This document shows, one piece after another, positions 73-35,997 of a stretch of 39,052 bases of DNA. Position 1 is the first letter of the stretch. Each line of letters opens with the position of its first letter. Below the pieces are notes generated by a model. That model saw only the letters and a program-made list of their open reading frames with translations, was not told the DNA's origin and ran no database searches. A program made the position numbers and the translations under genes. Origin of the DNA: Candidatus Margulisiibacteriota bacterium (GTDB taxonomy: Bacteria > Margulisbacteria > Termititenacia > Termititenacales > Termititenacaceae); NCBI GenBank assembly GCA_031268855.1, contig JAIRWS010000040.1, positions 1-39,052 on the forward strand, read 5' to 3'.

Positions 73-1824
73 TTAAAGTTTATCAATTCTATCTTTAAGA
101 TGGCTTATAAAATCTCCATATTCAGTTTTAATATCATTTTTACTGACAGCTTTCATGATTTCATTTTTCATACTCTGCTTCTCTTCTTTGTTTCCATTAG
201 TTACAGTTTCGATATTCTCAATGGCACTTTTTTTCTCATTGTATACAAAAGTTGAACCGTCTTTGTTTATGTAATTAGTAATTAATTTCGAAGATATAAA
301 ATCTTCCATCGTTGAAATATCTTTTACAACGTCAGCATATGCTAACCACGATTCCGAAAACTCAGGATAAGCATTAACAAATTCATTCCGTTTACTATTG
401 GATACTGTATCAGAATCCGACACAATAATAAATTTCTTATGTGCGAGAATTAAAAGTTGCACTAGACACTCTACACCGGAAATACCCTTTAAATAAACCA
501 TGCCAATGTTTTTAAAATCGTTCACTTTTTTATTAAAAGCACAATATTTTTGAAAAAGCTCTTTATCAAGCCATCCTTCAAAAATAATATTTTTGTCTTG
601 TATACATTCAAAAATACTTGCGCCAATAGCATTCCGCAGTAATTCATCACTACTAAACGGCGCTTTCCGATCTGGTTTTACTGCTGTAGTAACATCATCT
701 TTTTTTTCAACAACCAAATGTCGATCTATGCAATTTGAATCTATCATATATTGTGAATGAGTAGAGTAAATCATCTTTGCATGTTCGCTTATTTTTAATA
801 ATTCATCCCGCAAATATCGCGCACTTGTAGGGTACAAACTCTGATCGGGTTCATCTATTAAAATAATATCTCGTTCACTCATCATATTGGAACGATCTTT
901 GGTAGATAACATCAACAATATACTAATGAATTTTTTAAATCCATCGCTCCTGTCTTCAAAAGAGTATTTCGTCTCATTAACTACTTTTATAGAAATTTCA
1001 TCGCCATTTGGGCGTAGCTCAATAGAAGTGTCTTTAAAGTCTTTCCATATCTTACGGAATGTCTGTGTTACGGTTTTTGATATTTGGCTTAATAAATTTT
1101 CATAATCTCCATCCTGTGATTTTGCATCTGAAAATTCGTTCTTAATATTTTCACGTTTGCACAAGACAAAAATATTTTCTAAAGATCTGTATTTGGTAGG
1201 ACTTGCGATGAAATCAGCAATAACTACACTATTTGATAACAAGGTCTTCTCATCATATTGCCAATAATGGCATCGATATACATTTTCCTTGTACAGTTCT
1301 TCGATTACTTCAAGGATACATGCCTGTAAGTTTTGTTCTGCGCCTACTACCTCTGTAGTAAACGATTTTCCACTAAGATACACCTCTTTTTCACATTCAA
1401 AATCTGTTCCAGAATAGCTCCCATAACTAAAATGTACTTTTTCATTATTCGCAATATCAATTTGAATTAAATATTCATAAAAAACAGATTTTATAAAATC
1501 TCGAATCGATTTATGACTTTTAAAAACAATACATTCTGTATTTACATACTTCGCTTTGAATCGACTCAATACGTCATCAATATCTTTTTCCGACAATTTC
1601 AGTATTGCTCGAACAAAATAATTCTCTATTTTTTCATTATTTATTCGTTTTCTTCTATCTTTATCTGATACTATATATTGTCCAAACACTGCCGCGATTG
1701 CTTTCAAAATATTACTCTTACCTGCTTCATTCTTGCCAAGCAAAATCAAGCAGTTATTATCAAATATGATAGTCTGTGATTTAATAGAACGAAAATTTTC
1801 AATCTCTATTTTAGTTAGTTCCAT
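73..1824 (-). CDS. OLD-family ATP-dependent nuclease (N-terminal ABC-type ATPase + C-terminal Toprim; GajA-like architecture)
   Basis: 583-aa ORF with AAGGAG about 8 nt upstream of the ATG. Walker A LLGKNEAGKS. Walker B/D-loop IILIDEPDQSLYP followed by STHS. C-terminal Toprim-like acidic motifs IIFEGWLD and FIIVSDSD. The gene is visibly far more AT-rich than the rest of the window. Confidence 0.75.
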   Translation of the reverse strand: MELTKIEIENFRSIKSQTIIFDNNCLILLGKNEAGKSNILKAIAAVFGQYIVSDKDRRKRINNEKIENYFVRAILKLSEKDIDDVLSRFKAKYVNTECIVFKSHKSIRDFIKSVFYEYLIQIDIANNEKVHFSYGSYSGTDFECEKEVYLSGKSFTTEVVGAEQNLQACILEVIEELYKENVYRCHYWQYDEKTLLSNSVVIADFIASPTKYRSLENIFVLCKRENIKNEFSDAKSQDGDYENLLSQISKTVTQTFRKIWKDFKDTSIELRPNGDEISIKVVNETKYSFEDRSDGFKKFISILLMLSTKDRSNMMSERDIILIDEPDQSLYPTSARYLRDELLKISEHAKMIYSTHSQYMIDSNCIDRHLVVEKKDDVTTAVKPDRKAPFSSDELLRNAIGASIFECIQDKNIIFEGWLDKELFQKYCAFNKKVNDFKNIGMVYLKGISGVECLVQLLILAHKKFIIVSDSDTVSNSKRNEFVNAYPEFSESWLAYADVVKDISTMEDFISSKLITNYINKDGSTFVYNEKKSAIENIETVTNGNKEEKQSMKNEIMKAVSKNDIKTEYGDFISHLKDRIDKL

Positions 1825-1847
1825 ATCAAAATTCTCCTTTATAAATA

Positions 1848-2331
1848 TTAAATTTTAGCATTTTCTCCCTCAAACACCTCTCCCAGCACCGCCTGCTTCA
1901 GGCCCTCTACCTGCCCTCTACGTTCTTTCACCTGCATTTCCAAATCATCAACCCAATTCAGCAATTTTTCAACCCGCTCAACAATGACACGCTGTTCAGC
2001 AACCGATGGGAGAGGGAGAATAGCCGTTGAAAGCAATTTTTGATTCAAATTGTCCATTGTCTGCCCTATCGAATTTTGTAATAAATACGTTTGAAAAAAC
2101 TTTGGCAGCAACAAAAATAGTTCCTAGAGCAAATTTGCTTTCTTGGTAATGAACATGGTTTAGAGCTTTCTTGTCATGTCCGGTTGATGACACTAACGGT
2201 ATGCAAACCGCTTCCGTATCGAATTGAGTTGTTACTAAAGAATATTTTCCTGGTATTGCACTTGCCAGACCGGTTTTACCTTTTATAATATTGCAAGGAG
2301 AGCCTATTGGGCATGTCTCCCACTCACTCAT
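1848..2331 (-). pseudogene. hsdS: Type I restriction-modification specificity subunit remnant (half-size, frameshifted)
   Basis: Two overlapping ORF fragments lie in different frames (1996..2352 and 1848..2114). The first reads like an HsdS target-recognition domain (SEWETCPIGSPCNIIKGKTG...). The second reads like the conserved HsdS helical region (LPLPSVAEQRVIVERVEKLLNWVDDLE). One frameshift near 2100-2114 is needed to join them. Only one TRD is present. Confidence 0.65.
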
Positions 2332-3703
2332 TCCCCGCCGCCTTTGCCACATATTTCTGCCTACGGCTATTCGGCTTATCGGGAATAGTGCGAATTAGTA
2401 ATCCTTCCTGTAATAACGGCTGAAGAATTTCTAAACGAAAATGTTCACGATGTTTCAAGCCAAGATACGCCTGGATTTCTTCCCTGCTCCTTGGGATAGA
2501 ACAAAATTCAAGTATCGTATTTTTTTTGCCCTCATCGACTTGCGCGGTGACTTGCGCGGTGACTTGCGCGGTATTTTTGTCAGCATCAGGATACCGATAA
2601 AATATCGCGTGGACAAAAGTGGAAAACTCATACTGCAAGGGCGGCAGACCGGCATCGGCAAGCATTTTCTGCATCCGCAAAATACCCGTTCCCATTTTTT
2701 CGATATATTCGAGACGCTGCATTAAGTTGGCAATATTCGGATTACGCAAAACACTTTCTTTGCCAAAATTTTCCACTTTTAATCCCCTGGGCAGGCCGCC
2801 CGGACTAACGATTTCCACACGGTCATCAAAAATTTCCACCATCACATTGGCGCCTTTTTCAAAATAATCGCGATGGATCACAGCATTGATGACAGCTTCA
2901 CGCAGCGCTTCGTAAGGGATTTCCGGTATTTCGATACGCGCCGGCGAGCCGTCAAACTCATAACGCAAATTAAGATGCCGTTTCAAAAAAATCATCGCCT
3001 GGTCAATGTTATCGACAATATCGGCATTAAAATCTTTACGGTCGAGGACTGTAACCTTATCGCGCCCCTTAAACAGCACGCAAGTTACCGTGGTATGAAA
3101 GAAATGATGCTCAAGGTTTTTGGCAAAAAACAATACAGCGGTGTTGTAATAATAACACTGGTCAAATTGCGTTTCTGCCGCGTGTAGATTTTTGAGTATT
3201 TCATTGGTGGCCAGCACAGACGAAATACCGGCAAGTTTCAGGAAACGGTGAAATTTTTCCCCATCAAAATCTTTCTTTTGAAAATCACGATTAACGAGTT
3301 CATCAAAACGGATTTTCCCCTCGGACTTTACAAACTCGATAATTTCATCGCGCTTCATTTTTTGGGAGTTTGGGCCAACCCGGTTATAAAAGCCTGAAGT
3401 GCAGCGATACGGTTTATCCGTCCCTTCCCGGACTTCAATAATGAGTATGTTTTTATACTTGCGGGAGATGATCTTCACCGGCGGGTCGCAATTTTGCGCA
3501 ATGTCCTGGATCTGCGACAATAATTTGTTATCTATTTCCAGACCGACAACCTTGTTTTTATCGCCGATGCCAAGATAAATGAATCCACCTGATCCATTGG
3601 CAAAAGCGACCATTTCTTTATCAAGATTGGCGCATTGTTCCTTAAATTCAATGCGGTAACCTTCGCCCTGCTCCAGTATATATTTCAATTCCTGCTCGTT
3701 CAT
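2324..3703 (-). CDS. AlbA_2 (Schlafen-like) domain / HATPase_c_4 / C-terminal wHTH putative DNA-binding protein (COG2865-type)
   Basis: 459 aa. N-terminal AlbA_2-like EGYRIEFKEQ...VAFANGSGGFIYLGIGD. Central REAVINAVIHRDYFEKGANVMVEIFDDRVEIVSPGGLP. Winged-helix-like tail. Its start codon abuts the hsdR remnant stop, and its stop overlaps the hsdS remnant. Confidence 0.7.
   Translation of the reverse strand: MNEQELKYILEQGEGYRIEFKEQCANLDKEMVAFANGSGGFIYLGIGDKNKVVGLEIDNKLLSQIQDIAQNCDPPVKIISRKYKNILIIEVREGTDKPYRCTSGFYNRVGPNSQKMKRDEIIEFVKSEGKIRFDELVNRDFQKKDFDGEKFHRFLKLAGISSVLATNEILKNLHAAETQFDQCYYYNTAVLFFAKNLEHHFFHTTVTCVLFKGRDKVTVLDRKDFNADIVDNIDQAMIFLKRHLNLRYEFDGSPARIEIPEIPYEALREAVINAVIHRDYFEKGANVMVEIFDDRVEIVSPGGLPRGLKVENFGKESVLRNPNIANLMQRLEYIEKMGTGILRMQKMLADAGLPPLQYEFSTFVHAIFYRYPDADKNTAQVTAQVTAQVDEGKKNTILEFCSIPRSREEIQAYLGLKHREHFRLEILQPLLQEGLLIRTIPDKPNSRRQKYVAKAAGNE
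2537..2572. repeat. Perfect 3 x 12-bp tandem repeat (gacttgcgcggt), in frame inside the AlbA_2 gene (encodes AQVT x3)
   Basis: Read directly from the sequence. The translated product shows NTAQVTAQVTAQVDEG in the linker before the C-terminal wHTH. Confidence 0.95.
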
Positions 3704-4044
3704 TAGGCCGCCTTATACAATTCTGTTTCCAGTTCCCAGATCGCCTGAAGGTAATTTTCCTTACTGCCAAAGACACTAATAATTTCCGCAGGAGTGCCAT
3801 AATCATTAAAAAGAATAATGTCCGCCCGTTTGCGCTCCCCCCTGGCGGTTTTGTTTCCTTTAACGAAAATGCGGCCATCAGTAAAATAGACTTCTTCACG
3901 GACTTGAGTTTCGAGATCCCAACCCGCATGAACAATATTCGGGATAATAAATTGAGTTACAATATCTCTTTCAGACAGGTCTTTTTTGTTTGTCACCTTA
4001 TTTATAGCCTCTTTAAGTAAGAATAACATTGATAGTATAAACAA
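3703..4044 (-). pseudogene. hsdR: Type I restriction enzyme R subunit remnant with the motor/helicase core deleted
   Basis: 113-aa ORF. SERDIVTQFIIPNIVHAGWD...RGERKRADIILF matches the HsdR N-terminal nuclease-fold region. The last ~25 aa (FGSKENYLQAIWELETELY) resemble the extreme HsdR C-terminus. The several hundred residues of helicase core expected between them are absent. Confidence 0.6.
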
Positions 4045-11189: not shown

Positions 11190-12407
11190 ATGGCCAAAGT
11201 TAAAAGAAATATTTTAGCGGAACTCCTTAAAGAATTCGCTTTGCCGCAAATCTCGATCTTGTTGGGGCCGCGGCAGGTCGGCAAAACCTTCCTGCTAAAA
11301 GAACTGCATCGGGAAGCCCAAAAACGCCAGCTGCGCTGCAGCTATTACAATCTCGAACTGCCGTCCGATAATTTAAAATTCAACCAAGATGAGGCCGGTG
11401 TGTACAAAATGCTGACCACCAATACCGCTGTGCTTTTTATTGACGAATTTCATTATTACCCGAATATTTCCAAACTATTCAAAGCCATTTACGACAGCAA
11501 TAAAAAAATAAAAATTTTTGCGTCCGGCTCGTCATCAATAGAAATACATAAACACCTCAAAGAAAGTCTGGCTGGCCGGCGGCTGGTCACTAAAATAAAT
11601 CCGCTGACCCTGACTGAATACGCGCAAAAAAACAAAACCCGAAATCCCGCTAAAACGCTTGACGAATATCTGGTCTATGGCGGGCTGCCCGGATTGGTGC
11701 ACGCCGATAACAAAGAGCACAAAATACGGCTGTTAAACGAACTGCTGGAAACTTATATCCAAAAAGACATCAAATCCCTGCTCAAGGAAGAAAATATCCG
11801 CGCTTTTAATAATTTGCTGTATTTGCTGGCCGAACGACAGGGCTCGCTGATCTCCGTCAATAACCTGGCCAATGAAATCGGCCTGACCAGCCGCACTATC
11901 GAAAAATATCTAACGCTTCTGGAAAACACTTATACTTGTTTCCCGCTCGGCTCATATTCCAAAAATATCGGCAACGAATTAAAAAAATCCCGCAAGTTTT
12001 TTTTGTACGATTTCGGCATTCGGAATACTATACTGAAAGATTTTTCCGCCAGCCGCAGCAGAAAAGATTTTGGCGCTATTAACGAGTCTTTTGTCTTTTT
12101 GAATTTGCTCTGGCAATTGCAGCCTAATATGGAGCTGCGTTTTTGGCGGGACAAATCCGGCAACGAGGTGGATTTTGTCCTGCTCGTTGACCGCCAGCCA
12201 ATACCAATAGAAGTAAAAACAACCTGGTCGGACGCCGGCATCCCGCAAGGTCTTAAAGCCTTTCTCAAACGTTACCCCGCCACAACCCAAGCGTTTGTCC
12301 TATCAACGAATTATATTGGCGTGGCTAAATATAAGAATACCAAAATCATTTTTATGAAAACCGTGGCTTGCCTGAATTTGCAAAACTTCACCAAGGAGCA
12401 TTTTTGA
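11190..12407 (+). CDS. AAA+ ATPase with C-terminal DUF4143 (PD-(D/E)xK-like) domain
   Basis: 405 aa. Walker A GPRQVGKT, Walker B LFIDEF. C-terminal EVDFVLL...IPIEVKT, typical of AAA_14 + DUF4143 proteins. Confidence 0.8.
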   Translation: MAKVKRNILAELLKEFALPQISILLGPRQVGKTFLLKELHREAQKRQLRCSYYNLELPSDNLKFNQDEAGVYKMLTTNTAVLFIDEFHYYPNISKLFKAIYDSNKKIKIFASGSSSIEIHKHLKESLAGRRLVTKINPLTLTEYAQKNKTRNPAKTLDEYLVYGGLPGLVHADNKEHKIRLLNELLETYIQKDIKSLLKEENIRAFNNLLYLLAERQGSLISVNNLANEIGLTSRTIEKYLTLLENTYTCFPLGSYSKNIGNELKKSRKFFLYDFGIRNTILKDFSASRSRKDFGAINESFVFLNLLWQLQPNMELRFWRDKSGNEVDFVLLVDRQPIPIEVKTTWSDAGIPQGLKAFLKRYPATTQAFVLSTNYIGVAKYKNTKIIFMKTVACLNLQNFTKEHF

Positions 12408-17697: not shown

Positions 17698-18004
17698 AAT
17701 TATTTTGATTTTAGCTCAAGCGGCGTTATTTTTATAGCCTGAATCTTCTTTTTAGCCGGCGGCGGCTAATAATGTATCCTTTTTCCGCCGCCGAAATATT
17801 CAAAGCTCCGGGCACATTAGTGGACAAGCTATGTCGAGAATTTGTGGCAGCTATAAACCAAACACCCCTGTTCAATGTTTTTCTTGAGCCGCTTTTTTAA
17901 TCAGCGCTCTGGCCAGGGACAGCACTACTTCTTGAGAGCCAAGGTCTAACCGCTGTCCTGACACAGAGCCGCCAGTTTTTTGCTCATTTGAAAATAGCGC
18001 GCAG

Positions 18005-18328
18005 CTAAAGCCGTTTTAGTATTTTTTCCGCAGTGCGATCCAGCTGACGCTGGATATCGTCTTTTAAAATTTTATATAGAGCGCCCTTGTTGATGTTTTT
18101 TTTCAGCGGCTTTTTGGTATTGCGAAAAAGCAAGTCTGGAGTGAGCTGTAAAGCCTGCGCCATTTTTTCGATCATTTCCACCGAGGGAAATCTTTTGCCC
18201 AGCTCTATCTCGCTGATGTAGTTGGTGGCTGTGTTGCAGATGTCAGCCAGCTTGGTCTGGGTCAAGCCGGATCCCTTGCGGGCATTGCGTAAATTGCGGA
18301 TAAATATTTCACGTAAAGTCATTAGCAA
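18005..18328 (-). CDS. XRE-family helix-turn-helix transcriptional regulator (module 1)
   Basis: HTH_3-like GLTQTKLADICNTATNYISEIELGKRFPSVEMIEKMAQAL. The track start is TTG at 18328; the ATG at 18322 is the more likely start. Divergent from the tail-fibre-like gene. Confidence 0.8.
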   Translation of the reverse strand: MLMTLREIFIRNLRNARKGSGLTQTKLADICNTATNYISEIELGKRFPSVEMIEKMAQALQLTPDLLFRNTKKPLKKNINKGALYKILKDDIQRQLDRTAEKILKRL

Positions 18329-18350
18329 ATGCTAATGTCTGAGGCCATGC

Positions 18351-18411
18351 TTGACAAATGTCTAACTGATAGTATACTAAATATGTCTTTTAGATAGAGT
18401 CATCTAAAAGC
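18351..18411 (+). promoter_or_regulatory. Promoter (TTGACA-16 nt-TATACT) plus a 10-bp inverted repeat at the start of the 5' UTR of the module-1 fibre-like gene
   Basis: -35 at 18351..18356 and -10 at 18373..18378. The -10 lies within the palindrome AGTATACT, so a -10-like hexamer also exists on the minus strand. Inverted repeat gtcttttagat-agagtc-atctaaaagc at 18386..18411. Confidence 0.5.
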
Positions 18412-18447
18412 TGATTATTGTTACCGCAAGAAAAGGGGGTATTTTTT

Positions 18448-19452
18448 ATGGTAAACGCAAGCAATTACACGGACACGACAGACACGGATTTCAAAGCGGG
18501 GAGTTATAATATCGATACGGGCAAACCTCTTTCGTCCACAGGCGTGAGAGCGGCTTTGCACACCAAAGAAAAAATCGCCAACAAGCAGGTCTCTTCAGCG
18601 GACGCCACGGCGGATACTTTGACCGCTAATTCCAGTGATAGCTATTATCCAACAGCCAAGCTGGCCGGGAAAAATCTCGACGCGCTGAGGAACGGCAAGC
18701 AGGATAAGCTCGCCGCCGGCATAGCCAAAAATATCGTGGCTTATTCCGGGACGGCGGGAACACCTGGCACGCTAACCAGAACCACGACTATAGACACCGC
18801 GGCGAACGCCAGCGACGACAGGATACCCACGGAAAAAGCGGTGGCTACCGCTTTGTCTGGAAACGAAAACACGAGCAATAAAGCTACGTCAATTACTGCT
18901 GCCAACAAAAACGATGTGGTCAAGTATCCAACGATCGGGGCGGTGACAGCCTGGGCGACCACTACGTTAATGGATTTACTTTTGCCTATAGGGACGATAA
19001 TAGCTATGGAAACTATGGCTTATTACAACAACGCCGACGCTACATTCAAAAGCAAATGGAAAGTCTGCGACGGCAGCAGCAGCAACGCGCCGAATCTGAA
19101 ACATAGATTCTTGCGCGGTTTCGAGTCCGGCGACAGTACGACCGGCGGCGCGAACAGCGTGGAGGTGGATGTACCCTTAAAAAAGCATAGCCATACCTTT
19201 ACTGGCGCAACGGCAAGTGGTTCTCTTAATCTATATCACTATGGCGACGGCTTAGACAGAACAATTTTTACCAATAGCGGGGATAGTAGTACTTCACTGC
19301 CCAATAATAATGGAGAAACTACCGGAGAAGGAATTAATTTTTCCCTTACCCCTTCCGGCACGATCAGCAGTGAAGGCGCGGATAGTTCAACCATTACCGT
19401 AAGTACGTTGCCAAGTTATTACACTGTAATTTATATTATGAAAATAGCTTGA
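18448..19452 (+). CDS. Orphan phage tail-fibre-like protein with C-terminal tail-collar (MdpB-like) domain
   Basis: The ATG at 18448 has AAGGGGG 8 nt upstream; the track start at 18418 is an upstream TTG. The N-terminal half has 3-4 degenerate fibre-type repeats (YYPTAKLAGKNL, RIPTEKAVATAL, KYPTIGAVTAW). Collar-like core: IGTIIAM...WKVCDGSS...NLKHRFLRG...GGANSVEV...KKHSHTF. C-terminal strand LPSYYTVIYIMKIA. No signal peptide is evident. Confidence 0.7.
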   Translation: MVNASNYTDTTDTDFKAGSYNIDTGKPLSSTGVRAALHTKEKIANKQVSSADATADTLTANSSDSYYPTAKLAGKNLDALRNGKQDKLAAGIAKNIVAYSGTAGTPGTLTRTTTIDTAANASDDRIPTEKAVATALSGNENTSNKATSITAANKNDVVKYPTIGAVTAWATTTLMDLLLPIGTIIAMETMAYYNNADATFKSKWKVCDGSSSNAPNLKHRFLRGFESGDSTTGGANSVEVDVPLKKHSHTFTGATASGSLNLYHYGDGLDRTIFTNSGDSSTSLPNNNGETTGEGINFSLTPSGTISSEGADSSTITVSTLPSYYTVIYIMKIA

Positions 19453-19458
19453 TATACT

Positions 19459-19496
19459 GATGAAGTGTCGGTCGCTGACTGCACCTCATCTTCTTT
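19459..19496. terminator. Putative hairpin terminator between the convergent fibre-like gene and ymdB
   Basis: gatgaagtg-14 nt-cacctcatc (9-bp stem, 1 mismatch) followed by ttcttt. Confidence 0.35.
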
Positions 19497-20277
19497 AATC
19501 CGCCTGCCTAACCACGCGCTCTATTTTTGTGCATTTACCGCGTGTGTCAATCTCCAGATACACCGCGTTAAAAACCGCCGCGCCGATTTCGACCACTTCA
19601 AATTTGGTTTTAAGACCGGAGAGAAATCTTTTTTGCGCGGCCTCGACGCTCATGCCGAGATTGGATTTTCGCGCGCCGACCATGCCGGCGTCCGTAATAT
19701 AACCAGCGCCGTTTTCCAGTATCTGTTCATCCGCGGTCTGCACATGCGTGTGCGTGCCAAGTACAGCGGAGACGCGGCCGTCGAGATAAAATCCCAGCGC
19801 TTTTTTTTCCGACGTCGCCTCGGCATGCATGTCCACGATCACCGCGTCGGTTTTTATCCGGCGCAGTAAATTATCCAGCGTTTGGAATGGACAATCCAGC
19901 GGCGTCTCAATAAATGTGCGCCCCAGAACATTGGTCACCAGTACCTGCATACCCTCGATGTCCAGCAGGACATAACCCGCGCCGTACTCGCAGCGCGGAT
20001 AATTGAGCGGACGCGCCAGCAGCGGCATCTGCGCAATGTCCTTAAAAATTTCTTTCTTGTCCCAGATATGATTGCCGCCGGTCAACGCTTGAATGCCCAG
20101 TTTGTCCGTCAGCTCTTGATACACTGGCAGGGTCAGGCCAAAACCGCCGGCGGCGTTTTCAGCGTTGGCGATGATCAGATTGGGTGCGTATTGCGCGCGC
20201 AGCTCCGGCAGGACTTTGGCCGCGGCTTTGCGCCCCGCTGAGCCGATGATATCGCCGATAAAAAGAACTTTAAGCAT
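19495..20277 (-). CDS. ymdB: YmdB-family metallophosphoesterase (2',3'-cyclic-nucleotide phosphodiesterase, TIGR00282-like)
   Basis: 260 aa. N-terminal MLKVLFIGDIIGSAGRKA and NAENAAGGFG. Lies 3 nt downstream of rny, as in Bacillus. Confidence 0.85.
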   Translation of the reverse strand: MLKVLFIGDIIGSAGRKAAAKVLPELRAQYAPNLIIANAENAAGGFGLTLPVYQELTDKLGIQALTGGNHIWDKKEIFKDIAQMPLLARPLNYPRCEYGAGYVLLDIEGMQVLVTNVLGRTFIETPLDCPFQTLDNLLRRIKTDAVIVDMHAEATSEKKALGFYLDGRVSAVLGTHTHVQTADEQILENGAGYITDAGMVGARKSNLGMSVEAAQKRFLSGLKTKFEVVEIGAAVFNAVYLEIDTRGKCTKIERVVRQAD

Positions 20278-24054: not shown

Positions 24055-25340
24055 GTCAGCAGTTTCGCTTTCAGAATATAGCCTTCCGCGCCAACGATCT
24101 TAGCGTCAGCAAACTGACCTGGAACACAGCGGGACGTGAGATTCACACCGCCGTCAATATCCGGCGCTTCGCACTGTGTGCGGCCAAAAAAAGGCATATC
24201 CATTAAAATTTTCACTTGCTTACCCAGCATCTTTTTATTCTTCCTATCTGTTACTCTGCTTTGCGCATCCGTTAATTCGGCCACGCGGTTTTCTTTCACC
24301 GTCCGCGGCAGCTGTCCTGTCAGAGCCGCCGCTTTCGTGCCTTTTTCCCGGCTATAGGCCAGAACGCCTACTTTACTAAACTCATACTCCTCAACAAAAT
24401 TTTTTAATCTGGCAAAATCGGCCTCGTCTTCCCCCGGATACCCGACAATAAAATTAGTGCGAATGGCAATGTCAGGAATAAACTCCCGGAGCAGCTTGAT
24501 CTTTTGTTTGATCAATTTCTCCGAACTATCCCGCCCCATGCGCGTCAAAATTTTGTCCGCGATATGCTGCAGAGGCATATCGAGATAATGGCAGACCTTG
24601 CTGCTTTCCGCCATTACCTGTAATATTTCCGGCGTAACCCGTTCGGGATACGCGTACATGACCCGTATCCATTCCAGCCCCGCGATTTTCTCCAGAGACC
24701 GCAACAAATCCGCCAGACGATATTCGCCGCAAAGATCTATACCATAAGAGGTAGTATCCTGCGCCACCAGAGAAATTTCGCGCACTCCTCTGGCAACTAA
24801 ACATTCAGCTTCTTTGATAATATCATTTTTTTGCTTCGAGCGGTAGCCCCCTCGCAGGCGCGGTATCGTGCAAAAAGCGCAGGCATTGTCGCAGCCGTCA
24901 GCGATCTTGAGATAGGCGCTGTGCGGCAAAGTCGCGGGGAAGCGGAACTCCTGTCTGGTCAAAATTTTCGGCAGGGACGCCAAAAACTGGCCGTCTTTCT
25001 CGACAGCCTCAACGATATTTTGCGCCGAACCGACGCTGACTATAGCGTCGATCTCTGGATATTTTTTGAGCAGTTTGGCTTTTTCGCGCTGCACCAGACA
25101 GCCAGCCGCAATGATTTTGCCAAAGTAGCCCTGTTTTTTGAGCGCGATCAATTTCTCTATCTCCGCCTGGGCTTCCCGCACGGCGGAATCAATGAACGCG
25201 CAGGTATTGATGAGGGCAATATCCGCTGGCGGCTCGCCGGTCACGATACGGTACCCGCGCGCCCGCAATGCGCCCAGCATCTCCTCGGTATCGGTGAGAT
25301 TTTTCGGACAGCCAAGACTGATGGGGAAGACGGAGGGCAT
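24051..25340 (-). CDS. rimO: Ribosomal protein S12 methylthiotransferase RimO (radical SAM MTTase)
   Basis: 429 aa. N-terminal ISLGCPKNLTDTE, radical-SAM cluster CDNACAFCTIP, C-terminal TRAM-like region. Confidence 0.85.
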   Translation of the reverse strand: MPSVFPISLGCPKNLTDTEEMLGALRARGYRIVTGEPPADIALINTCAFIDSAVREAQAEIEKLIALKKQGYFGKIIAAGCLVQREKAKLLKKYPEIDAIVSVGSAQNIVEAVEKDGQFLASLPKILTRQEFRFPATLPHSAYLKIADGCDNACAFCTIPRLRGGYRSKQKNDIIKEAECLVARGVREISLVAQDTTSYGIDLCGEYRLADLLRSLEKIAGLEWIRVMYAYPERVTPEILQVMAESSKVCHYLDMPLQHIADKILTRMGRDSSEKLIKQKIKLLREFIPDIAIRTNFIVGYPGEDEADFARLKNFVEEYEFSKVGVLAYSREKGTKAAALTGQLPRTVKENRVAELTDAQSRVTDRKNKKMLGKQVKILMDMPFFGRTQCEAPDIDGGVNLTSRCVPGQFADAKIVGAEGYILKAKLLT

Positions 25341-25729
25341 TACAGTAATTCTTTTTTTATGCTTCTTTCTAGCTCTCTGGCAAACTCCAAAAAATCACCA
25401 GCCTGTTGAACGGACGGTATACCATCAGGCAATATTCCAAGTTCGCCGGGGTAGCGTTCTTCAATATAGGTTTTATTTATGAGAGCTAGTAAATCTTCAT
25501 TAATTTTCAAATCTTTTATCTCTTTAATCATGCCATACAACAAAATCAAATCATGAGTTTTGATTATCGGTTTATCTTTCTCCAGTAAATAGGCCTTAAA
25601 GTATTTTTCTATTGCCTGCTGACAATGAAACGCTACAATATTTGTCAGGGACTGGCCTTTGTTTGTTTCTATGGCAGCTGCTATGTCTTTTTCCGCGTAT
25701 AGAATCCAGGCTTCAACAAACTTTTTCAT
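25340..25729 (-). CDS. HEPN-domain protein (toxin partner of MNT), copy 1
   Basis: Likely start is MKKFVEAW at 25729; the track ORF extends to 25753. HEPN-like FHCQQAIEKYFKAYL...KTHDL...EERYPG. Overlaps the upstream NTase gene by 17 nt. Its TAA stop shares one nt with the rimO ATG (TAATG). Confidence 0.75.
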   Translation of the reverse strand: MKKFVEAWILYAEKDIAAAIETNKGQSLTNIVAFHCQQAIEKYFKAYLLEKDKPIIKTHDLILLYGMIKEIKDLKINEDLLALINKTYIEERYPGELGILPDGIPSVQQAGDFLEFARELERSIKKELL

Positions 25730-26054
25730 ACAACACCTTTCCCGTGTTTTCAATTTCTTTAAGAAAAAAACTGCCGTTATTTTTTAGCACAGCCAATTCT
25801 CCTCTGGAATAAACTAAAAGGTCTAAAGCTTTTTCATAATTTATTTTTCGCACCAATTTATGCACTGCCAAAAATCTTTGCGCTCTTTCTCCATAAGTCC
25901 GCGCGACATTATTATCATCAAGCACGACCATTAAATCCACATCGCTGTCCGGCCCGGGATTGCCTCTGGCATAGGAGCCAAATAAGACGATCTTGTAGGG
26001 ATCAGAGGCTTTGAGCTGGCGCACTAGATCATTGATAATAGTCTGGGTTTTCAT
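25713..26054 (-). CDS. Minimal nucleotidyltransferase (MNT antitoxin-type), copy 1
   Basis: 113 aa. Pol-beta-type NTase motif LFGSYARGNPGPDSDVDLMVVL. Confidence 0.8.
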   Translation of the reverse strand: MKTQTIINDLVRQLKASDPYKIVLFGSYARGNPGPDSDVDLMVVLDDNNVARTYGERAQRFLAVHKLVRKINYEKALDLLVYSRGELAVLKNNGSFFLKEIENTGKVLYEKVC

Positions 26055-26178: not shown

Positions 26179-26616
26179 TTATCTCGTCGCCATATAATAA
26201 CCTACTAATAACCTACTCCCTGGGCATGTCGGACAATTGACACCGGGATTATGCGCAGCGCGCTTTAAACTCTCACCCAAACGAGAAACACTCCTTGATT
26301 CGGCTGGAGTGTTTGCGCCGTTACTCTGGAGAACAAGAGTCCTGCGCCCAACGGTGATCGGCGCCCATGCCGCTGCAGGATGCGGCGGAGCAACAACTCC
26401 AACGACAAAACGCAAATAAGCGTCCGCCTCTTCCGCGGAAACTCCGGAAAATTTTGCTTCGGCTATTTCAGAAACATTTTTGGCCGCGGCTAATTTTTCC
26501 TCGTCGGTGTCGATAAGCCCATTATTGCTCTTTTGTCCCTCGATAGCATCCGCCTGTCTTAGAATTGGCTGATACTGCGGCCTGGCGCTCAAAATGTCTA
26601 ATGATAAACTACTCAT
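26179..26616 (-). CDS. Hypothetical protein (no recognisable family)
   Basis: Start taken at MSSLSLDIL (ATG 26616), which has AAGGAG 8 nt upstream; the track start at 26661 is unlikely. 145 aa. C-terminal NCPTCPGS. Terminator hairpin downstream. Confidence 0.45.
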   Translation of the reverse strand: MSSLSLDILSARPQYQPILRQADAIEGQKSNNGLIDTDEEKLAAAKNVSEIAEAKFSGVSAEEADAYLRFVVGVVAPPHPAAAWAPITVGRRTLVLQSNGANTPAESRSVSRLGESLKRAAHNPGVNCPTCPGSRLLVGYYMATR

Positions 26617-26743
26617 AACTTTTACTCCTTTTATTTTTTTATTTTTTGAATACAGGCACAAATTTACCGGAAAGAAGTTTTATCCATAGGCATCACCTCT
26701 GGCTGCAAATATCAAGAAAAATTCTATTCGCTCAGCTGGCAGT

Positions 26744-26760: not shown

Positions 26761-26942
26761 TATAAACAACAATTACACACGCGTTTAATATCCTTTTATT
26801 TATTTTGACAGCGCTTCTTTTCTAAAATCTAGCATTTATTGCAGAAGCATGTCAATAGCAATTATTTATCATCAGTTGGCCGCCAGTGTTGCATTTTTTA
26901 GCCTGATTACACATTTTGATTTTATCTGCTAAAATAAACCAT

Positions 26943-27371
26943 ATGTCTATGAGGTTACATACATACCCATCAGGAATAAGCAATTTCTCTTGGGGGCAGG
27001 CAAGGCCATCTGTTCGGAATATTCAGTATTCGCCGGAACTTTCAACATCAACAATAGAACAGAGAGTTGAGAAATTTCAAAAAAACTGCGCGGAAAAATA
27101 TTCGCTGGCCATCGCGCAAATAAAAAAAGATTTTGGCTGGGATTTGCCTGAGGATGAGCAGAACGAGAACGATTATCAAATCGCTTACCAGGCGGATTGG
27201 TATGAGTATGCTCTAGCACAGCCGCTCAAAAATACGATATTTCTTAACATGCACAGCGCGGAGCAGAAAATTCGCGCTCTAACCGCATGGGAAGAAAAAA
27301 TACAGGATTTTATTCGGAACTTCGAGGAGGGTCCCGCCGACCGCAAGCAAAACAGCGTTAGGGAGAAATAG
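26943..27371 (+). CDS. Hypothetical protein (no recognisable family)
   Basis: ORF 26916..27371 in the track. The first ATG is at 26943 (MSMRLHTYPSG) and no clear Shine-Dalgarno precedes it. Its 3' end overlaps the convergent 85-aa ORF by 14 nt. Confidence 0.4.
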   Translation: MSMRLHTYPSGISNFSWGQARPSVRNIQYSPELSTSTIEQRVEKFQKNCAEKYSLAIAQIKKDFGWDLPEDEQNENDYQIAYQADWYEYALAQPLKNTIFLNMHSAEQKIRALTAWEEKIQDFIRNFEEGPADRKQNSVREK

Positions 27372-27615
27372 CATTATTTATAAAATCTCTTAGCCTGTCC
27401 ATCTCCCGCTCCAGTTTAGCCAATTCCGCCGCGCTATTCCTGTAGAGTCTAAAAGCAGATCTAACCGTATTCACCATAATGTTCAATTCCTGGCTGTAGT
27501 TAGAGATCATTGCTACCTGCGCCTGACCGCCGTCAATCCACGAGTGCCATTCTGATGACAGGCGCTGATATTTTTCCTGCAACTGGGCATCATTAGCTAT
27601 CATTTTACAAAACAC
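27358..27615 (-). CDS. Hypothetical small helical protein
   Basis: 85 aa. GTG start with GGGGGAG 4 nt upstream. The sequence suggests two long helices. No family recognised. Confidence 0.35.
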   Translation of the reverse strand: MFCKMIANDAQLQEKYQRLSSEWHSWIDGGQAQVAMISNYSQELNIMVNTVRSAFRLYRNSAAELAKLEREMDRLRDFINNAISP

Positions 27616-28239: not shown

Positions 28240-28275
28240 AACATGTTATGTTATAATTATAGGCGAGGTGTTCTA

Positions 28276-28542
28276 GTGCGCGAAGTGAGTTTTACTAATT
28301 TTTCTCAGAATTTACAAAAGTATCTGGGAAATACAGAGGCGGATAATGTGACTATCGCCAAAAATGGAGTGCCCGTATTGAGGATTGTTATGGATGACGC
28401 ATACCATAAAAACAAATTAGTCAAACCAGAAAATAATCAGGTTTCCATATCTCAGCAATTACTTGGCGTAGCGGCAGGCATCAACATGTCTTTAGAGGAA
28501 TTAAAAGCTGAGCGCCTAGCTAAATATGAACATACTGCTTGA
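28276..28542 (+). CDS. Phd/YefM-like antitoxin (partner of the PIN toxin)
   Basis: Start taken at GTG 28276, which has GAGGTG 5 nt upstream; a TATAAT at 28252..28257 lies inside the longer track ORF. N-terminal VSFTNFSQNLQKYL...VTIAKNGVPVLRIV resembles Phd/YefM. Overlaps the PIN gene by 17 nt. Confidence 0.6.
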   Translation: MREVSFTNFSQNLQKYLGNTEADNVTIAKNGVPVLRIVMDDAYHKNKLVKPENNQVSISQQLLGVAAGINMSLEELKAERLAKYEHTA

Positions 28543-28939
28543 TACAAACATTATTCTGGATGTACTGCTAAAACGTTCTCCGTTTTATATTGAGGCTCTA
28601 AAGATTTTTGAACTGGCGGAAACTGGCAAAATAAATGGTTTTATTTCCGCAACAACATTTACCGATATTTATTACCTCGTGCGTAAGGCGGTTGGCAATA
28701 AAAACGTACAAAAAATTTTACACCAGCTTACAACCATTTTTACAATTTTAGCAGTGGCCGAGCCGGAAATTTTGAACGCTCTTAATTTGCAATGGAAAGA
28801 TTTTGAAGATGCGGTGCAATATGCAACTGCGCTGGGCGCTCAAATGGACGGCATTGTCAGCCGCAATAAACAGGATTATCAGAACAGCAAAATTCCGTTG
28901 TACGAACCAGCGGAATTTTTACAAAAAACTATAGAATAA
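28526..28939 (+). CDS. vapC: PIN-domain ribonuclease toxin (VapC family)
   Basis: 137 aa. N-terminal ILLDTNIILDVLL with the first PIN acidic residue. Later acidic positions occur in ...TDIYY... and ...FEDAVQ.... Confidence 0.8.
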   Translation: MNILLDTNIILDVLLKRSPFYIEALKIFELAETGKINGFISATTFTDIYYLVRKAVGNKNVQKILHQLTTIFTILAVAEPEILNALNLQWKDFEDAVQYATALGAQMDGIVSRNKQDYQNSKIPLYEPAEFLQKTIE

Positions 28940-29738: not shown

Positions 29739-30469
29739 AGTAGTTTCTCCAAACCATAGAGCAGGCCGATCCGACCGCTGATTTTTTTGCAGGCTAGAAG
29801 CACGCCGGGCATAAAACATTCTCTGTTGATAGTCTCATGGCGCAAGACCAAACGCTGACCCTGCGCGCCCAGCAAGACTTCCTGTGTGGCGACAAAACCG
29901 GGCAGACGCACGGCATGAATACGCACATTGCCGAGGCTTGCCCCCTGCGAACGTTCAGGCAGAAACTCCTTGCTTTCCACCGCTGGCGGATTGGTTTGGC
30001 CAACCGCTTCATTTATTAACTGAGCAGTTTTGAGCGCTGTGCCGGAAGGCGCGTCGGCTTTGTGGTCATGATGATACTCGACGATTTCCACCGCTGGCAT
30101 ATACCGCGCGGCCTGCGCCGCAAACTGCATCATTAGCACCGCGCCAATAGCGAAATTGGGCGCGATGAGCACGCCGCGTTTAAGTTTTTGACTTTCCGCG
30201 TCGATAGCCTTCAGATCGTCCTCGGTGAAACCGGTCGTGCCGATCACCGCCTGTGCGCCGTTATTGATAATCGCGCGGACATTTTCCATCCGCGCGCTCG
30301 GCTGCGTAAAGTCCACCACGATTTGCGCGCCGGATTTTTTTATCGCGCCGGCTAAATCAGCACCGGCATCGGTCTGGCCGACCAGTTCTAATTCCGCGTC
30401 GGCCTGCACCGTGGCGACCACCGTCTGCCCCATTTTGCCTTGCGCGCCATTGACGAGGATTTTTAGCAT
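29735..30469 (-). CDS. dapB: 4-hydroxy-tetrahydrodipicolinate reductase
   Basis: 244 aa. NGAQGKMGQ nucleotide-binding start and EIVEYHHDHKADAPSGTA signature. Confidence 0.92.
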   Translation of the reverse strand: MLKILVNGAQGKMGQTVVATVQADAELELVGQTDAGADLAGAIKKSGAQIVVDFTQPSARMENVRAIINNGAQAVIGTTGFTEDDLKAIDAESQKLKRGVLIAPNFAIGAVLMMQFAAQAARYMPAVEIVEYHHDHKADAPSGTALKTAQLINEAVGQTNPPAVESKEFLPERSQGASLGNVRIHAVRLPGFVATQEVLLGAQGQRLVLRHETINRECFMPGVLLACKKISGRIGLLYGLEKLL

Positions 30470-30654
30470 ACAGCCTCTACAATAGCGATAGTCGTTTCCG
30501 CCGCCTTCGGACTTTTTAATATAGTGGCCAGCATGTACAGGCCTTTTTCGGTAAAAGCGGTGGGTAAAGCAGGAGAAAATTTAAGTTTAGGGTTATCGAA
30601 AATTTCGATAACCTCGTTTTTCTCGACACCGTCATACGGCACAACATTGTTCAT
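30463..30654 (-). pseudogene. ORF6N-family C-terminal fragment (N-terminal DNA-binding half missing)
   Basis: LPTAFTEKGLYMLATILKSPKAAETTIAIVEAV matches the conserved C-terminal block of ORF6N proteins. The part of the 130-aa track ORF upstream of M68 is not ORF6N-like. Its stop overlaps the dapB start by 7 nt. Confidence 0.5.
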
Positions 30655-30850
30655 GAAATTATTATAACACCGAAATATCTTTAAGCCACTTTCATCACAT
30701 AGATGACCGCAAAATATTTTGGTACTATGGGAACAGCTGTCTGCGGACTGCCGCCGCTGAAAGCTGGCTGCCTTTTTCAATAAAATATGGTTCCTCTGCA
30801 AAACTGTCTGTGTAATCGCTGGCCATAAAAATCCCCCTAAATATATTGAT

Positions 30851-30896
30851 GTCATTTGACATAGTCATATGACATCGGCATAGGACATATTATAAT
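30851..30896 (+). promoter_or_regulatory. Promoter with two 10-bp palindromic operator-like sites upstream of the XRE gene
   Basis: GTCATTTGAC (30851..30860) and GTCATATGAC (30864..30873). ATGACA (30869..30874)-16 nt-TATAAT (30891..30896). The ATG at 30910 implies a very short leader. Confidence 0.5.
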
Positions 30897-30909
30897 CTAG
30901 AATTCTGCC

Positions 30910-31164
30910 ATGTCAAGCGGCATTTATAGTTTGAAAGAAGACCTTGGCTTGAAATATGACACCAAAGACATCGGACGCCATATTACCAAATTGCGCCTAC
31001 AGAAAAAACTAAGTATGCACCGGCTGGCTTACGAAGCCTGCGTCGACGCCACAGTGCTCATGCGCATTGAAAAAGGCGAACGGATACCCATGCTGGACAC
31101 TTTGTTAAAAATCATCGATGGGCTGAAAATACTGCCGGCTGATTTTTTTAAAGCGTTTAATTAA
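30910..31164 (+). CDS. XRE-family helix-turn-helix transcriptional regulator
   Basis: 84 aa. LRLQKKLSMHRLAYEACVDATVLMRIEKGERIPMLDTLLKI is HTH_3-like. Confidence 0.8.
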   Translation: MSSGIYSLKEDLGLKYDTKDIGRHITKLRLQKKLSMHRLAYEACVDATVLMRIEKGERIPMLDTLLKIIDGLKILPADFFKAFN

Positions 31165-32604: not shown

Positions 32605-33006
32605 TTATTTATTCAAGTTCTCCTCCCGTACTGCAACTATTGGAGTAAAATTTTTGACTCGTTCGGCATATTTGACCGCATGCTCAACATTTTTCTCCGT
32701 AATATCCATTTCATAGGGATAACGCGGCTGTACGCCAAATTGCGTCAAAAAACCGCAAATACCAGCCAATTCGTCGAAAGATTTATCTTTTTCTGAGCAC
32801 AAAGCGCAAAGCTCATCTAACTCATGGGTTTTAGGCGGGCGAACATTTCTAGCTATTAAATAACCTTTCAAATATTTTTCTGCGGCTTGTTCGCAATGAT
32901 AACAAATAATTTCATAATGCCTGGGACGCATCTTGCGCAACAATTGAGCCGTGTCTAAATCGGCATCGGCAAAAGACCACCATTCAGAGCTGTTTTCAGC
33001 TGCCAT
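32605..33006 (-). CDS. HEPN-domain protein (toxin partner of MNT), copy 2
   Basis: Start taken at MAAENSSEWW (33006). HCEQAAEKYLKGYL...KTHELDEL...QPRYPY. Overlaps the upstream NTase gene by 11 nt. Confidence 0.75.
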   Translation of the reverse strand: MAAENSSEWWSFADADLDTAQLLRKMRPRHYEIICYHCEQAAEKYLKGYLIARNVRPPKTHELDELCALCSEKDKSFDELAGICGFLTQFGVQPRYPYEMDITEKNVEHAVKYAERVKNFTPIVAVREENLNK

Positions 33007-33319
33007 AAATTTTAATTCCCTCTGTGGCAATAATATTTTCCAAAGATAGTTCGGCTTTACGCCGCTCAAAAACACTTTTTCTGCCGATCAACAAATCCAA
33101 CGGGATCGTTTTTTTCTTATAAAGCGTGGCGCGGATTTTTGCGCCAAGTTCAACGGTGTCTGTTTCCGCATCGGGAACAACCACATAAATATCCAAATCG
33201 CTGTCATCTCTCGGCTGACCGCCGGCATAAGACCCAAAAAGATATATCGCCTCCGCCGGTGTGCTGGCTATTACCGAGTTTGTAATCAGATCAATCTCTT
33301 TTTTTACAGCATCTAACAT
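32996..33319 (-). CDS. Minimal nucleotidyltransferase (MNT antitoxin-type), copy 2
   Basis: 107 aa. LFGSYAGGQPRDDSDLDIYVVV. Confidence 0.8.
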   Translation of the reverse strand: MLDAVKKEIDLITNSVIASTPAEAIYLFGSYAGGQPRDDSDLDIYVVVPDAETDTVELGAKIRATLYKKKTIPLDLLIGRKSVFERRKAELSLENIIATEGIKIYGS

Positions 33320-35431: not shown

Positions 35432-35761
35432 CTATTCGACCAGCATTTCGTTGAGGATATTTTTCACTTCTAATATTTTGTTAGAATTTAAGCGTCCGAG
35501 TTTGCGCACAATTCGGCGCTTGTCCACAGTGCGGATTTGCTCTAAAACAATCCAGCCGTTCTTACCGCGAAAAGTTAGCGGCACCCGCGTCGGAAACGCG
35601 CGGGCTTTGGTCGTTAGCGGCGCAATAATCACCGTGGCGATATTACGGTTCATTTCGTCCGGAGAAACAATCACACAAGGACGCGTTTTTTTTATTTCAT
35701 GCCCGACAGTAGGATCAAGATTGACCAGACAAATTGTGTATTGTTCCATCACCAAACCCAT
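35432..35761 (-). CDS. mazF: MazF/PemK-family endoribonuclease toxin
   Basis: VNLDPTVGHEIKKTRPCVIVSPD...IAPLTT. An alternative ATG at 35749 shares one nt with the mazE stop (TGATG). Confidence 0.85.
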   Translation of the reverse strand: MGLVMEQYTICLVNLDPTVGHEIKKTRPCVIVSPDEMNRNIATVIIAPLTTKARAFPTRVPLTFRGKNGWIVLEQIRTVDKRRIVRKLGRLNSNKILEVKNILNEMLVE

Positions 35762-35997
35762 TCAAAAGACCGGTCATCAATATAGTCGGGCAGTAACAAG
35801 GCGGCGGTTTTGGTTTCAGCCGCTTGGGCAAAAGCCTTCTCCCAGCCCTGCCGCGGTTTTTTTTCCACGCCTTTGATCACCAGCTCGTCAGCGTGGATTT
35901 CCATTTCCACTTCGTCCTCGATACTTAACTCACGTAAAATATTTTTTGGCAGACGGATGCCACGGGAATTGCCAATTTGCACCACCGGAATAAGCAT
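35749..35997 (-). CDS. mazE: AbrB/MazE/SpoVT-family antitoxin
   Basis: 82 aa. SpoVT/AbrB swapped-hairpin signature VQIGNSRGIRLPKNIL. AAGGAG 7 nt upstream of the ATG. Confidence 0.85.
   Translation of the reverse strand: MLIPVVQIGNSRGIRLPKNILRELSIEDEVEMEIHADELVIKGVEKKPRQGWEKAFAQAAETKTAALLLPDYIDDRSFEWVW

Follow-up and report, generated by a model that had tools for sequence, protein, structure and literature searches.

What is a gene for a phage tail-fibre-like protein, paired with a divergent regulator of its own, doing among housekeeping genes with no prophage around it? The question is raised by positions 18005 to 19452 of contig JAIRWS010000040.1 (assembly GCA_031268855.1, Candidatus Margulisiibacteriota bacterium, of the termite-gut Candidatus Termititenax lineage), which were analysed together with the whole stretch of 39,052 nucleotides in which they lie, referred to here as the window. 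The original prediction, made from the letters of the DNA, read the pair as a fibre gene wired to an XRE regulator and offered three roles for it, namely an adhesin, a spare fibre for a particle or prophage encoded elsewhere, or a phage-exclusion decoy; both the wiring and the roles are inferences. The comparisons reported here reveal that the pair is one copy of a lineage-specific, multi-copy cassette, composed of an XRE regulator and a tail-fibre-like protein, which occupies stable chromosomal slots. Further, alignments between species indicate that the tips of the fibres are exchanged by recombination while the slots stay fixed. As an explanation we propose, with a confidence somewhat short of even, that the pair belongs, as one slot among many, to a chromosomal library of domesticated, repressor-gated phage receptor-binding fibres.

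The regulator-fibre pair and its family

Both open reading frames (ORFs) on which the prediction rested, a helix-turn-helix (HTH) gene on the minus strand and a fibre-like gene of 334 aa on the plus strand, were present (module 1). The regulator gene (18005..18322, minus strand) encodes an XRE/Cro-C1-type HTH protein of 105 aa when read from ATG 18322, a likelier start than the TTG at 18328 with which the longest ORF (107 aa) begins. Its assignment, made originally for two modules of the window, was borne out in both cases by matches above the Pfam cut-offs: the module 1 regulator matches HTH_3 at 4e-13 (49.6 bits compared with a curated cut-off of 23), and that of the second module, described below, matches HTH_31 at 9e-7 and, in addition, HTH_3 at 4e-6. 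A shared control region of 125 bp (18323..18447) separates the module 1 regulator from the fibre gene (18448..19452, plus strand), for which ATG 18448 is the likely start; this ATG follows the family-wide Shine-Dalgarno (SD) sequence AAAAGGGGGT, with the strong SD GGGGG at 18435-18439.

The module 1 fibre is built in five parts: an N-terminal adaptor (aa 1-47; 18448-18588), shaft repeats (aa 48-176), a collar core that holds the HxH motif KKHSHTF (aa 177-250; 18976-19197), a hypervariable tip (aa 251-318; 19198-19401), and a conserved last strand, PSYYTVIYIMK (19411-19443). All of the fibre motifs named in the original prediction were found between aa 66 and 322 of this product, with YYPTAKLAGKNL at aa 66, RIPTEKAVATAL at aa 125, KYPTIGAVTAW at aa 159, WKVCDG at aa 204, NLKHRFLRG at aa 216, KKHSHTF at aa 245, and PSYYTVIYIMK at aa 322. 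In an alignment of 38 family members (profile A1), the mean frequency of the majority residue is 0.72 in the N-terminus, 0.67 in the shaft, 0.56 in the collar, 0.32 in the tip, and 0.66 in the last strand, so that the tip is the least conserved region, and the two histidines H247 and H249 of the HxH motif are invariant.

A tail-collar-type core had been proposed for this protein, and the core stood, albeit outside the Pfam definition of the domain: neither window fibre matches Pfam Collar (PF07484) at E≤1 or any NCBIfam model, and almost all database relatives of both fibres lack a Pfam annotation. The PHROG tail-fibre families match the C-terminal halves of both proteins, at 2e-7 for fibre 1 (PHROG 1800, "tail collar fiber") and 1e-16 for fibre 2 of the second module (PHROG 2097, "tail fiber"). 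Profile A1 recovered solved tail-fibre structures from the PDB, namely 9qgo (9e-11; "tail fiber protein"), 6ov6 (1.2e-6), 9nxk (1.5e-5; the tail fibre of Pseudomonas phage Pa223), and 8kec (3.7e-5), in alignments that run from the LPxGTI strand to the final YYxxIYIMK strand; 6ov6 is the C24 protein of Bizionia argentinensis, described as the tip of a prophage long tail fibre. A phmmer search of the PDB with fibre 2 gave nothing meaningful. AlphaFold monomers were poor (pLDDT, the predicted local distance difference test, was 60.6 and 61.7 for two models), as would be expected for monomers of an obligate trimer. Foldseek with the first of these models placed 6ov6 first at 6e-5, followed by weaker matches to 9nxk and T4 gp10 (E≥0.03); with template modelling scores of about 0.2, this fold search does no more than agree with the sequence result.

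The collar domain (aa ~165-334) is found at 25-31% identity in 21 IMG/VR contigs, many of 95-180 kb, and it alone matches there: the N-terminal adaptor had no match in 2.9 million viral contigs, and in the searches of relatives and viral contigs the first ~47 fibre residues were found solely in Margulisbacteria of the Termititenax lineage. No match to either fibre was obtained by tblastn against 50,697 GenBank phage records. The shaft module (KQDKIAAGTANxIVAYSGTAGTxxTLTR...IPTEKAV) recurs in longer, repetitive, fibre-like metagenome proteins of 407-572 aa. The profile and viral-contig matches thus place the C-terminal half, by sequence homology, in the tail-collar fibre superfamily, of which it is a true though remote member.

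The original prediction counted a duplicated pair; the recurrence was confirmed, but its scale proved to be that of a lineage-wide family. Searches of sequence databases yielded 98 relatives for fibre 1 and 174 for fibre 2, and all organisms named by the sources are termite-gut Candidatus Margulisbacteria/Termititenax, the rest being unnamed metagenome proteins. A scan of one genome per species (185,579 species) gave 114 matches, of which 80 loci were kept, and 80 of 80 came from six termite-gut Margulisbacteria genomes. From these six genomes 93 fibre ORFs of both types were recovered, with at least 29 cassette loci in Gx481_bin108 (Gx481) and at least 24 in Termititenax aidoneus (T. aidoneus), the two best-sampled genomes.

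The pairing is equally regular. Using an HTH model seeded from the three regulators of the window, we found a divergent HTH-matching ORF of 65-141 aa upstream of the fibre gene in 64 of the 65 loci that contained the fibre 5' end and enough upstream DNA, and 64 of 67 cassette regulator ORFs matched Pfam HTH_3. Counted by fibre ORFs, a regulator lies within 450 bp of 74 of the 93; 12 ORFs are at contig edges, which leaves 74 of 81, and four of the seven exceptions are coordinate artefacts. Clustering of 650 ORFs from all loci returned as recurrent the fibre family (89 members) and three HTH subfamilies (29, 29, and 19), and no third gene, baseplate genes included, recurs beside the cassettes. 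Pairs of fibre cassettes within 2-4 kb of each other were seen on several contigs (L001, L005, L016, L019, L027, L031, L063, L068, and L071), in tandem or convergent orientation and sometimes with one long-type and one short-type fibre; local duplication may be one route by which the family expanded.

No phage genome surrounds these units. As predicted, module 1 has as neighbours a YhaM-like protein with OB and HD domains, YmdB, RNase Y, and RecA, and no capsid, tail, baseplate, lysis, or integrase gene is present, nor a reverse-transcriptase gene, among roughly 45 larger ORFs of the window (about 30 examined by Pfam and the rest by eye). Beyond the window, no phage structural gene adjoins any of the 80 loci, where the only matches to phage tail-fibre neighbourhoods are the fibres themselves, and neither the window nor the ~0.5 Mb of related loci contained a sheath-tube-baseplate cluster. 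The original prediction had left itself open on three counts, namely a lack of fibre homology, a position at the edge of a degraded prophage, and loss of the pairing in relatives. All were checked and none was found: the PHROG, PDB profile, and Foldseek matches support the homology, the window, which is probably an entire contig, lacks phage structural genes and the same unit occupies the same housekeeping slot in other species, and the HTH gene accompanies the fibre gene at nearly all assessable loci.

Fixed slots and exchanged fibre tips

The window holds three modules rather than the two that had been counted. Module 2, correctly placed at 36053..37349, consists of an XRE HTH gene (36053..36451, minus strand; 132 aa from ATG 36451, preceded by the SD sequence GGGAG) and a short-type fibre gene (36567..37349, plus strand; 260 aa). 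Its fibre has neither adaptor nor shaft and comprises a collar core followed by at least six HxH motifs and PSYYTVIYIMK, with a sub-threshold match to Pfam YmaF (HxH repeats; 2.6e-4) and a match to a phage fibre repeat. Compared with fibre 1, it shows 38% identity across the collar and 61% across the final 33 aa, and the last 37 nt of the two genes are identical at 32 positions, as reported originally. The third module, which had been overlooked and is decayed, lies at 30681..31164. Its XRE HTH gene (30910..31164, plus strand; 84 aa) matches the HTH model and Pfam HTH_3 and belongs to the regulator alignment A2, and the control region and collapsed fibre gene occupy 30681..30909 (minus strand). 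The fibre remnant (30681..30826, minus strand) retains the first ~33 codons from ATG 30826 and, out of frame, the last ~25 (...VPKYFAVIYVMKVA*, with the stop at 30681). By blastn against the orthologous locus L017, where the gene is intact (316 aa), some 860 bp of interior sequence has been lost. A 130-aa ORF that overlaps this module (30463..30855) has no Pfam match and is probably a hybrid or spurious. The three window modules represent one each of the three HTH subfamilies.

Each module has syntenic counterparts, module 1 in T. aidoneus (L029) and Gx481 (L042), module 2 in L002, and module 3 in L017, and in the other species all three slots hold solely the two-gene unit. Between the window and its orthologues, the flanks of the slots are ~77-87% identical in nucleotide sequence, the flanking genes 84-95% identical in protein sequence, and the regulators 81-93% (89-91% for module 1 in T. 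aidoneus and Gx481, 82% for module 2 in L002, and 93% for module 3 in L017), compared with 28-37% for the fibres; the module 1 fibre and that of L029 are 50% identical, with the N-terminal third aligning at 64%. In Gx481 the module 2 slot contains a fibre of the long type, nearer to window fibre 1 (52%) than to fibre 2.

Closer relatives locate the exchange. In the close genomes Gx481 and Gx485 the regulators are 96-99% identical and the fibres 51-90%. At two of their shared slots, DNA similarity of ~83-94% extends over the regulator, the control region, and the first ~115-120 fibre codons, is lost over the collar and tip, and returns in the last ~45 nt and the downstream flank. Because similarity breaks within the fibre gene and returns at its very end, we conclude from these alignments that the tips are replaced by recombination, with the 32 of 37 shared nucleotides at the 3' end serving as the right-hand anchor. 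Consistent with this, otherwise divergent paralogues of the same genome share segments of 120-900 bp at 88-96% identity. These breakpoints inside the fibre gene uphold the mosaic pattern, typical of receptor-binding proteins, that had been read from the two window genes.

Two other sources of variation were considered and rejected. A mobile element is not indicated, as there are no terminal repeats, transposase, or integrase, the similarity between paralogues ends at gene borders, and the slots are syntenic. For a diversity-generating retroelement, no reverse transcriptase was found among the window ORFs and no template repeat of the tip in 17700..19600.

Some slots lie within core gene clusters. 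In T. aidoneus (L102, 9499..10849 of BGZN01000001.1) a short-type cassette sits between rpmA (L27) and obg, in the widely conserved neighbourhood rplU-rpmA-obg, and thus illustrates the depth to which cassettes are lodged among core genes. At a distance of 750 bp from it, a gene encodes a protein of 528 aa that matches PorP/SprF weakly. Genes for AAA_14/DUF4143 ATPases were also seen repeatedly beside or near fibre cassettes (11190..12407 of the window, 2324..3559 of L029, 11060..12256 of L102, and 5289..6470 of L005), and such ATPases make up a cluster of six ORFs in five loci; in the T. aidoneus module 1 slot one such gene stands between yhaM and the regulator, and the window slot is without one.

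Control regions and the possible role of the fibres

The near-consensus promoter of module 1 was confirmed by a promoter scan as TTGACA-16-TATACT (18351..18378; -35 at 18351-18356 and -10 at 18373-18378, plus strand), which matches 11 of 12 sigma-70 consensus positions, and its -10 hexamer lies, as claimed, inside a perfect palindrome, AGTATACT (18371..18378). The inverted repeat downstream is likewise present, with a score reached by none of 30 shuffles, although its perfect arms are of 9 bp (CTTTTAGAT, 18387-18395, and ATCTAAAAG, 18402-18410) and not of 10 bp as first described. Three ATGTCT direct repeats begin at 18335, 18358, and 18383. A weak minus-strand promoter upstream of the HTH gene (18357..18329) would yield a leaderless HTH mRNA. 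From the HTH ATG as far as about +20, the sequence is near-invariant in three species, and the leader diverges beyond this block.

The module 2 control region (36452..36566) has the -35 hexamer TTGACT (36494-36499) and the -10 hexamer TATAAT (36516-36521), again with an 11 of 12 match in the promoter scan, and a palindrome, TATGCATA...TATGCAT (36510-36517/36527-36534), that overlaps the -10 and scored above all 30 shuffles. The orthologous locus L002 has a palindrome over its -10 in the same position but of other sequence, TATCCTAA-N7-TTAGGATA compared with ATGCATA-N9-TATGCAT in module 2, and the two regulators differ at five positions in the presumed helix 2-3 of the HTH. Decayed module 3 retains its promoter, its SD, and the palindrome GATGTCATATGAC/GTCAAATGACATC (30848-30876).

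Throughout the family, the HTH and fibre genes are separated by a median of 114 bp. A sigma-70 match of at least 11 of 12 is found in 31 of 65 control regions, compared with 0.35 expected from shuffles, and 14 of the 65 carry a perfect 12 of 12; the consensus of the SD and start region is AAAAGGGGGTATGTTTATG. Because a near-consensus promoter needs no activator, the divergent HTH protein would most simply be a repressor of the fibre gene. Between -10 and SD the cassettes carry inverted or direct repeats, with a mean best inverted-repeat score of 8.1 compared with 6.7 for shuffles, and in 12 of the 65 the repeat exceeds all 30 shuffles. Apart from the promoter hexamers, no 8-9-mer is shared among the cassettes of one genome; a common master operator is thus ruled out. 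An RNA-level role of the leader repeats was also set aside, as the leaders fold no more stably than shuffles (z = -1.0 and +1.0); Rfam had no match in the window.

In the library that we propose, each slot would consist of a small XRE repressor gene, a shared control region of ~115 bp, and a fibre gene, the control region combining a sigma-70 promoter close to the consensus and a consensus SD with an operator-like repeat, particular to the slot, that lies at the -10 or directly after it. Judging from the layout, the repressor would hold an intrinsically very strong fibre promoter off and would probably regulate its own gene. When repression lapses, fibre would be made abundantly and, as in solved trimeric tail fibres, would trimerise through the collar/HxH core; the ~47 N-terminal residues common to most long-type paralogues would attach it to one common carrier, and the hypervariable tip would bind a surface ligand on another cell. 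Repression, trimer, common carrier, and tip binding are what we infer. Renewal of the tips, which would proceed by homologous recombination between paralogues, anchored in the conserved 5' part and the last ~45 nt, with the regulator and operator staying put, is directly supported by sequence comparisons.

As to where such fibres act, we favour display on the cell itself as adhesins for partner recognition, because Termititenax is described, in the title of Utami et al. 2019 as cited in PMC7608387, as attached to ectosymbiotic spirochaetes of termite-gut protists. A fuller version, which we put forward tentatively and regard as rather doubtful, is a combinatorial adhesin library of dozens of slots, each with a private repressor and operator, which use one docking site and have their tips reshuffled by gene conversion. 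If this were true, single cells or lineages could change the partner surface that they recognise, by a transcription-factor-based counterpart of shufflons and antigenic variation.

Several observations weigh against this explanation. Both fibre types lack a signal peptide, a lipobox, and any hydrophobic segment (in fibre 1, hydropathy over 15 aa reaches at most 0.01, and the N-terminus has no hydrophobic stretch), and clustering of the 650 ORFs linked none of the cassettes to a gene for an export system, an anchor, or a chaperone; the missing signal peptide fits assembly in the cytoplasm onto a phage-like particle and is the main weakness of the adhesin reading. The poor monomer models lend no support to the trimer or tip folds. 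Repression is deduced from the layout only, and the regulators are without a sensor domain. For 53 of the 65 cassettes, the observed inverted-repeat score was reached in one or more of the 30 shuffles, and the module 1 repeat is kept only partly in its orthologues.

The lack of an export signal therefore keeps alive the alternative that the fibres are interchangeable receptor-binding proteins of a resident phage or a phage-tail-like particle (tailocin, extracellular contractile injection system (eCIS), or a device like the type VI secretion system) encoded elsewhere, the adaptor plugging into its baseplate and each repressor deciding which fibre is loaded. This we consider unlikely. In its favour, the order of adaptor, shaft, collar, and tip is exactly that of virion fibres, a consensus promoter and SD under a repressor resemble the burst expression of phages and tailocins, and the shaft module is shared with the longer fibre-like metagenome proteins. 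On the other hand, sheath, tube, baseplate, and capsid genes are absent from the window and from the surroundings of all 80 loci, where fibres and HTH genes alone recur, and the adaptor, the very part that would have to fit the particle, is missing from viral contigs in which the collar domain is found, with phage records equally silent in tblastn. No tailocin or eCIS is known to have its fibre genes scattered over dozens of loci, each under a regulator of its own.

A role of the cassettes as anti-phage or competitive devices, in which a decoy or assembly-poisoning fibre or a lectin-like bacteriocin is released or induced when the repressor is inactivated, appears quite improbable, and the decoy of the original prediction found no support. 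In favour of such a role, genes of the defence and toxin-antitoxin types abound in the window (AAA_15 ATPase, Schlafen/AlbA_2, MazEF, PIN toxin, and HEPN/nucleotidyltransferase pairs), and the regulators resemble restriction-modification controller proteins and CapH. That resemblance is at the level of generic HTH matches, though, and the fibres match none of 5,027 PADLOC defence models; the cassettes lie in housekeeping slots such as rpmA|cassette|obg and yhaM|cassette|ymdB and not in defence islands, a decoy would need an adaptor that matches phage baseplates, yet none of the viral contigs has the adaptor, and neither a toxin domain nor a lysis gene is present. Least probable is that the cassettes are non-functional debris, whether remnants of degraded prophages or a decaying selfish two-gene element: one of the three window copies has collapsed and several loci hold fragments, yet 55 of 64 regulator-linked fibre genes are complete ORFs of more than 200 aa, the slots are kept across species between flanks that have diverged to the extent given above, promoters and SD sequences have been kept at the consensus far more often than by chance, only the tip varies between a conserved N-terminus, collar, and last strand, and neither terminal repeats nor a transposase or integrase gene is present.

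The proposed library of domesticated fibres matters because partner recognition by bacteria that live attached to other bacteria is poorly understood and hard to study in uncultured lineages. The family offers candidate recognition molecules for the Termititenax-spirochaete association, dozens per genome, with variable tips that can be expressed and assayed for binding. It also illustrates a principle of gene organisation, in which many copies of a structural gene are each locked by a small presumed repressor of their own at a consensus promoter, and which, if confirmed, would provide a natural supply both of repressor/operator pairs that are orthogonal to one another and of modular fibres for binding. 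The fold and the regulator class are already known; the organisation, dozens of privately regulated fibre genes in housekeeping DNA with the lock fixed and the cargo shuffled, was not found described in the literature searched, and nothing relevant was found on Margulisbacteria with tail fibres or contractile injection systems.

The rest of the window consists of housekeeping, toxin-antitoxin, and defence genes, with no tRNA. A low-GC island at 1..4044 (31-33% GC in the first 2 kb compared with ~50% elsewhere) was likely acquired horizontally and carries defence-type genes, namely an AAA_15/AAA_21 ATPase (73..1824), a Schlafen/AlbA_2 protein with HATPase_c_4 (2324..3703), and a fragment that resembles the C-terminus of a type I restriction R subunit (3703..4044). 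Four toxin-antitoxin-type pairs fall within 11 kb (25340..26054, 28243..28939, 32605..33319, and 35432..35997), comprising HEPN with nucleotidyltransferase (twice), Phd-like with PIN, and MazE with MazF; the mazE promoter (36019..36047) is a perfect 12 of 12 sigma-70 match and lies back to back with the gene of the module 2 regulator, at the 3' end of that gene. No Pfam match was obtained for three ORFs (26179..26661, 26916..27371, and 27358..27615), and the last two, which are conserved at 54-65% identity in syntenic L017, are thus lineage-specific genes without an assigned function.

Comparison with known fibres, adhesins, and switches

The closest relatives by homology are the tail-fibre and tail-collar receptor-binding proteins (9qgo, 6ov6, 9nxk, T4 gp10/gp12, and PHROG 1800 and 2097), with which the C-terminal ~170 aa are homologous at the profile level. 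Shared with them are the LPxGTI...W..CDG...PNL..FLRG...LP.H.H core, the HxH motifs, the closing hydrophobic strand, the modular build of adaptor, shaft, and variable tip, and a mosaic evolution driven by recombination. Unlike them, the cassettes lie outside any virion or tail gene cluster, have no linked chaperone gene, occur in dozens of copies in housekeeping DNA with an XRE regulator for each, escape the Pfam Collar model at E≤1, and have an adaptor that does not occur in viral contigs. Some family members are named in their source annotations after COG4675, the "microcystin-dependent protein" (MdpB), and both are stand-alone collar-domain proteins. MdpB-type proteins, which are small tail-collar proteins of bacterial chromosomes, are of ~170 aa and have clear Pfam Collar matches, and they are not known to form HTH-paired families with dozens of copies.

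The invertible tail fibres of phages Mu and P1, the PilV shufflon of R64, and a PilV-collar fusion likewise combine a conserved N-terminus with alternative receptor-binding C-termini. In contrast to the Mu/P1 and R64 systems, the cassettes have no invertase and no inverted-repeat crossover sites; each of their variants is a complete gene at a locus of its own, transcription factors apparently decide which variant is used, and renewal apparently comes from homologous recombination rather than from programmed inversion. The fusion of PilV to a tail collar, reported as a repurposed adhesin (PMC9881135), shows by analogy that the collar domain can be reused outside virions.

The closest functional precedent for the partner-cell recognition that we favour is provided by the mosaic adhesive trimer (MAT) fibres of Bdellovibrio bacteriovorus, described as 21 surface adhesins that form phage-like trimers with an invariant N-terminal domain and diverse C-terminal tips, for which tip swapping was proposed (PMC10769870). 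Going by that description, both are multigene families of phage-like fibres in a bacterium that binds other bacteria, and the cassettes, if confirmed, would be a second independent case of phage fibres reused for bacterium-to-bacterium recognition. The differences are considerable: MAT proteins are described as having a signal peptide and a beta-rich N-terminal domain of ~130 aa, many of them ending in an S74 chaperone-protease (PMC10769870), whereas the cassette fibres are shorter (180-400 aa), of the collar type, conserved over only ~47 aa at the N-terminus, and without a signal peptide, the last point again weighing against a role as adhesins. The passages of PMC10769870 that describe the MAT fibres mention no dedicated regulators; the cassette fibres each have their own.

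In their control the cassettes resemble the cI/Cro switches of phages and the C proteins of restriction-modification systems, in which a small XRE gene is divergent from the gene that it controls, putative operators overlap a strong promoter, and the regulator mRNA may be leaderless. Unlike those switches, each cassette would control a single structural gene for a fibre, has no antirepressor, protease, or sensor domain, and is part of an arrangement that is repeated dozens of times with different putative operators.

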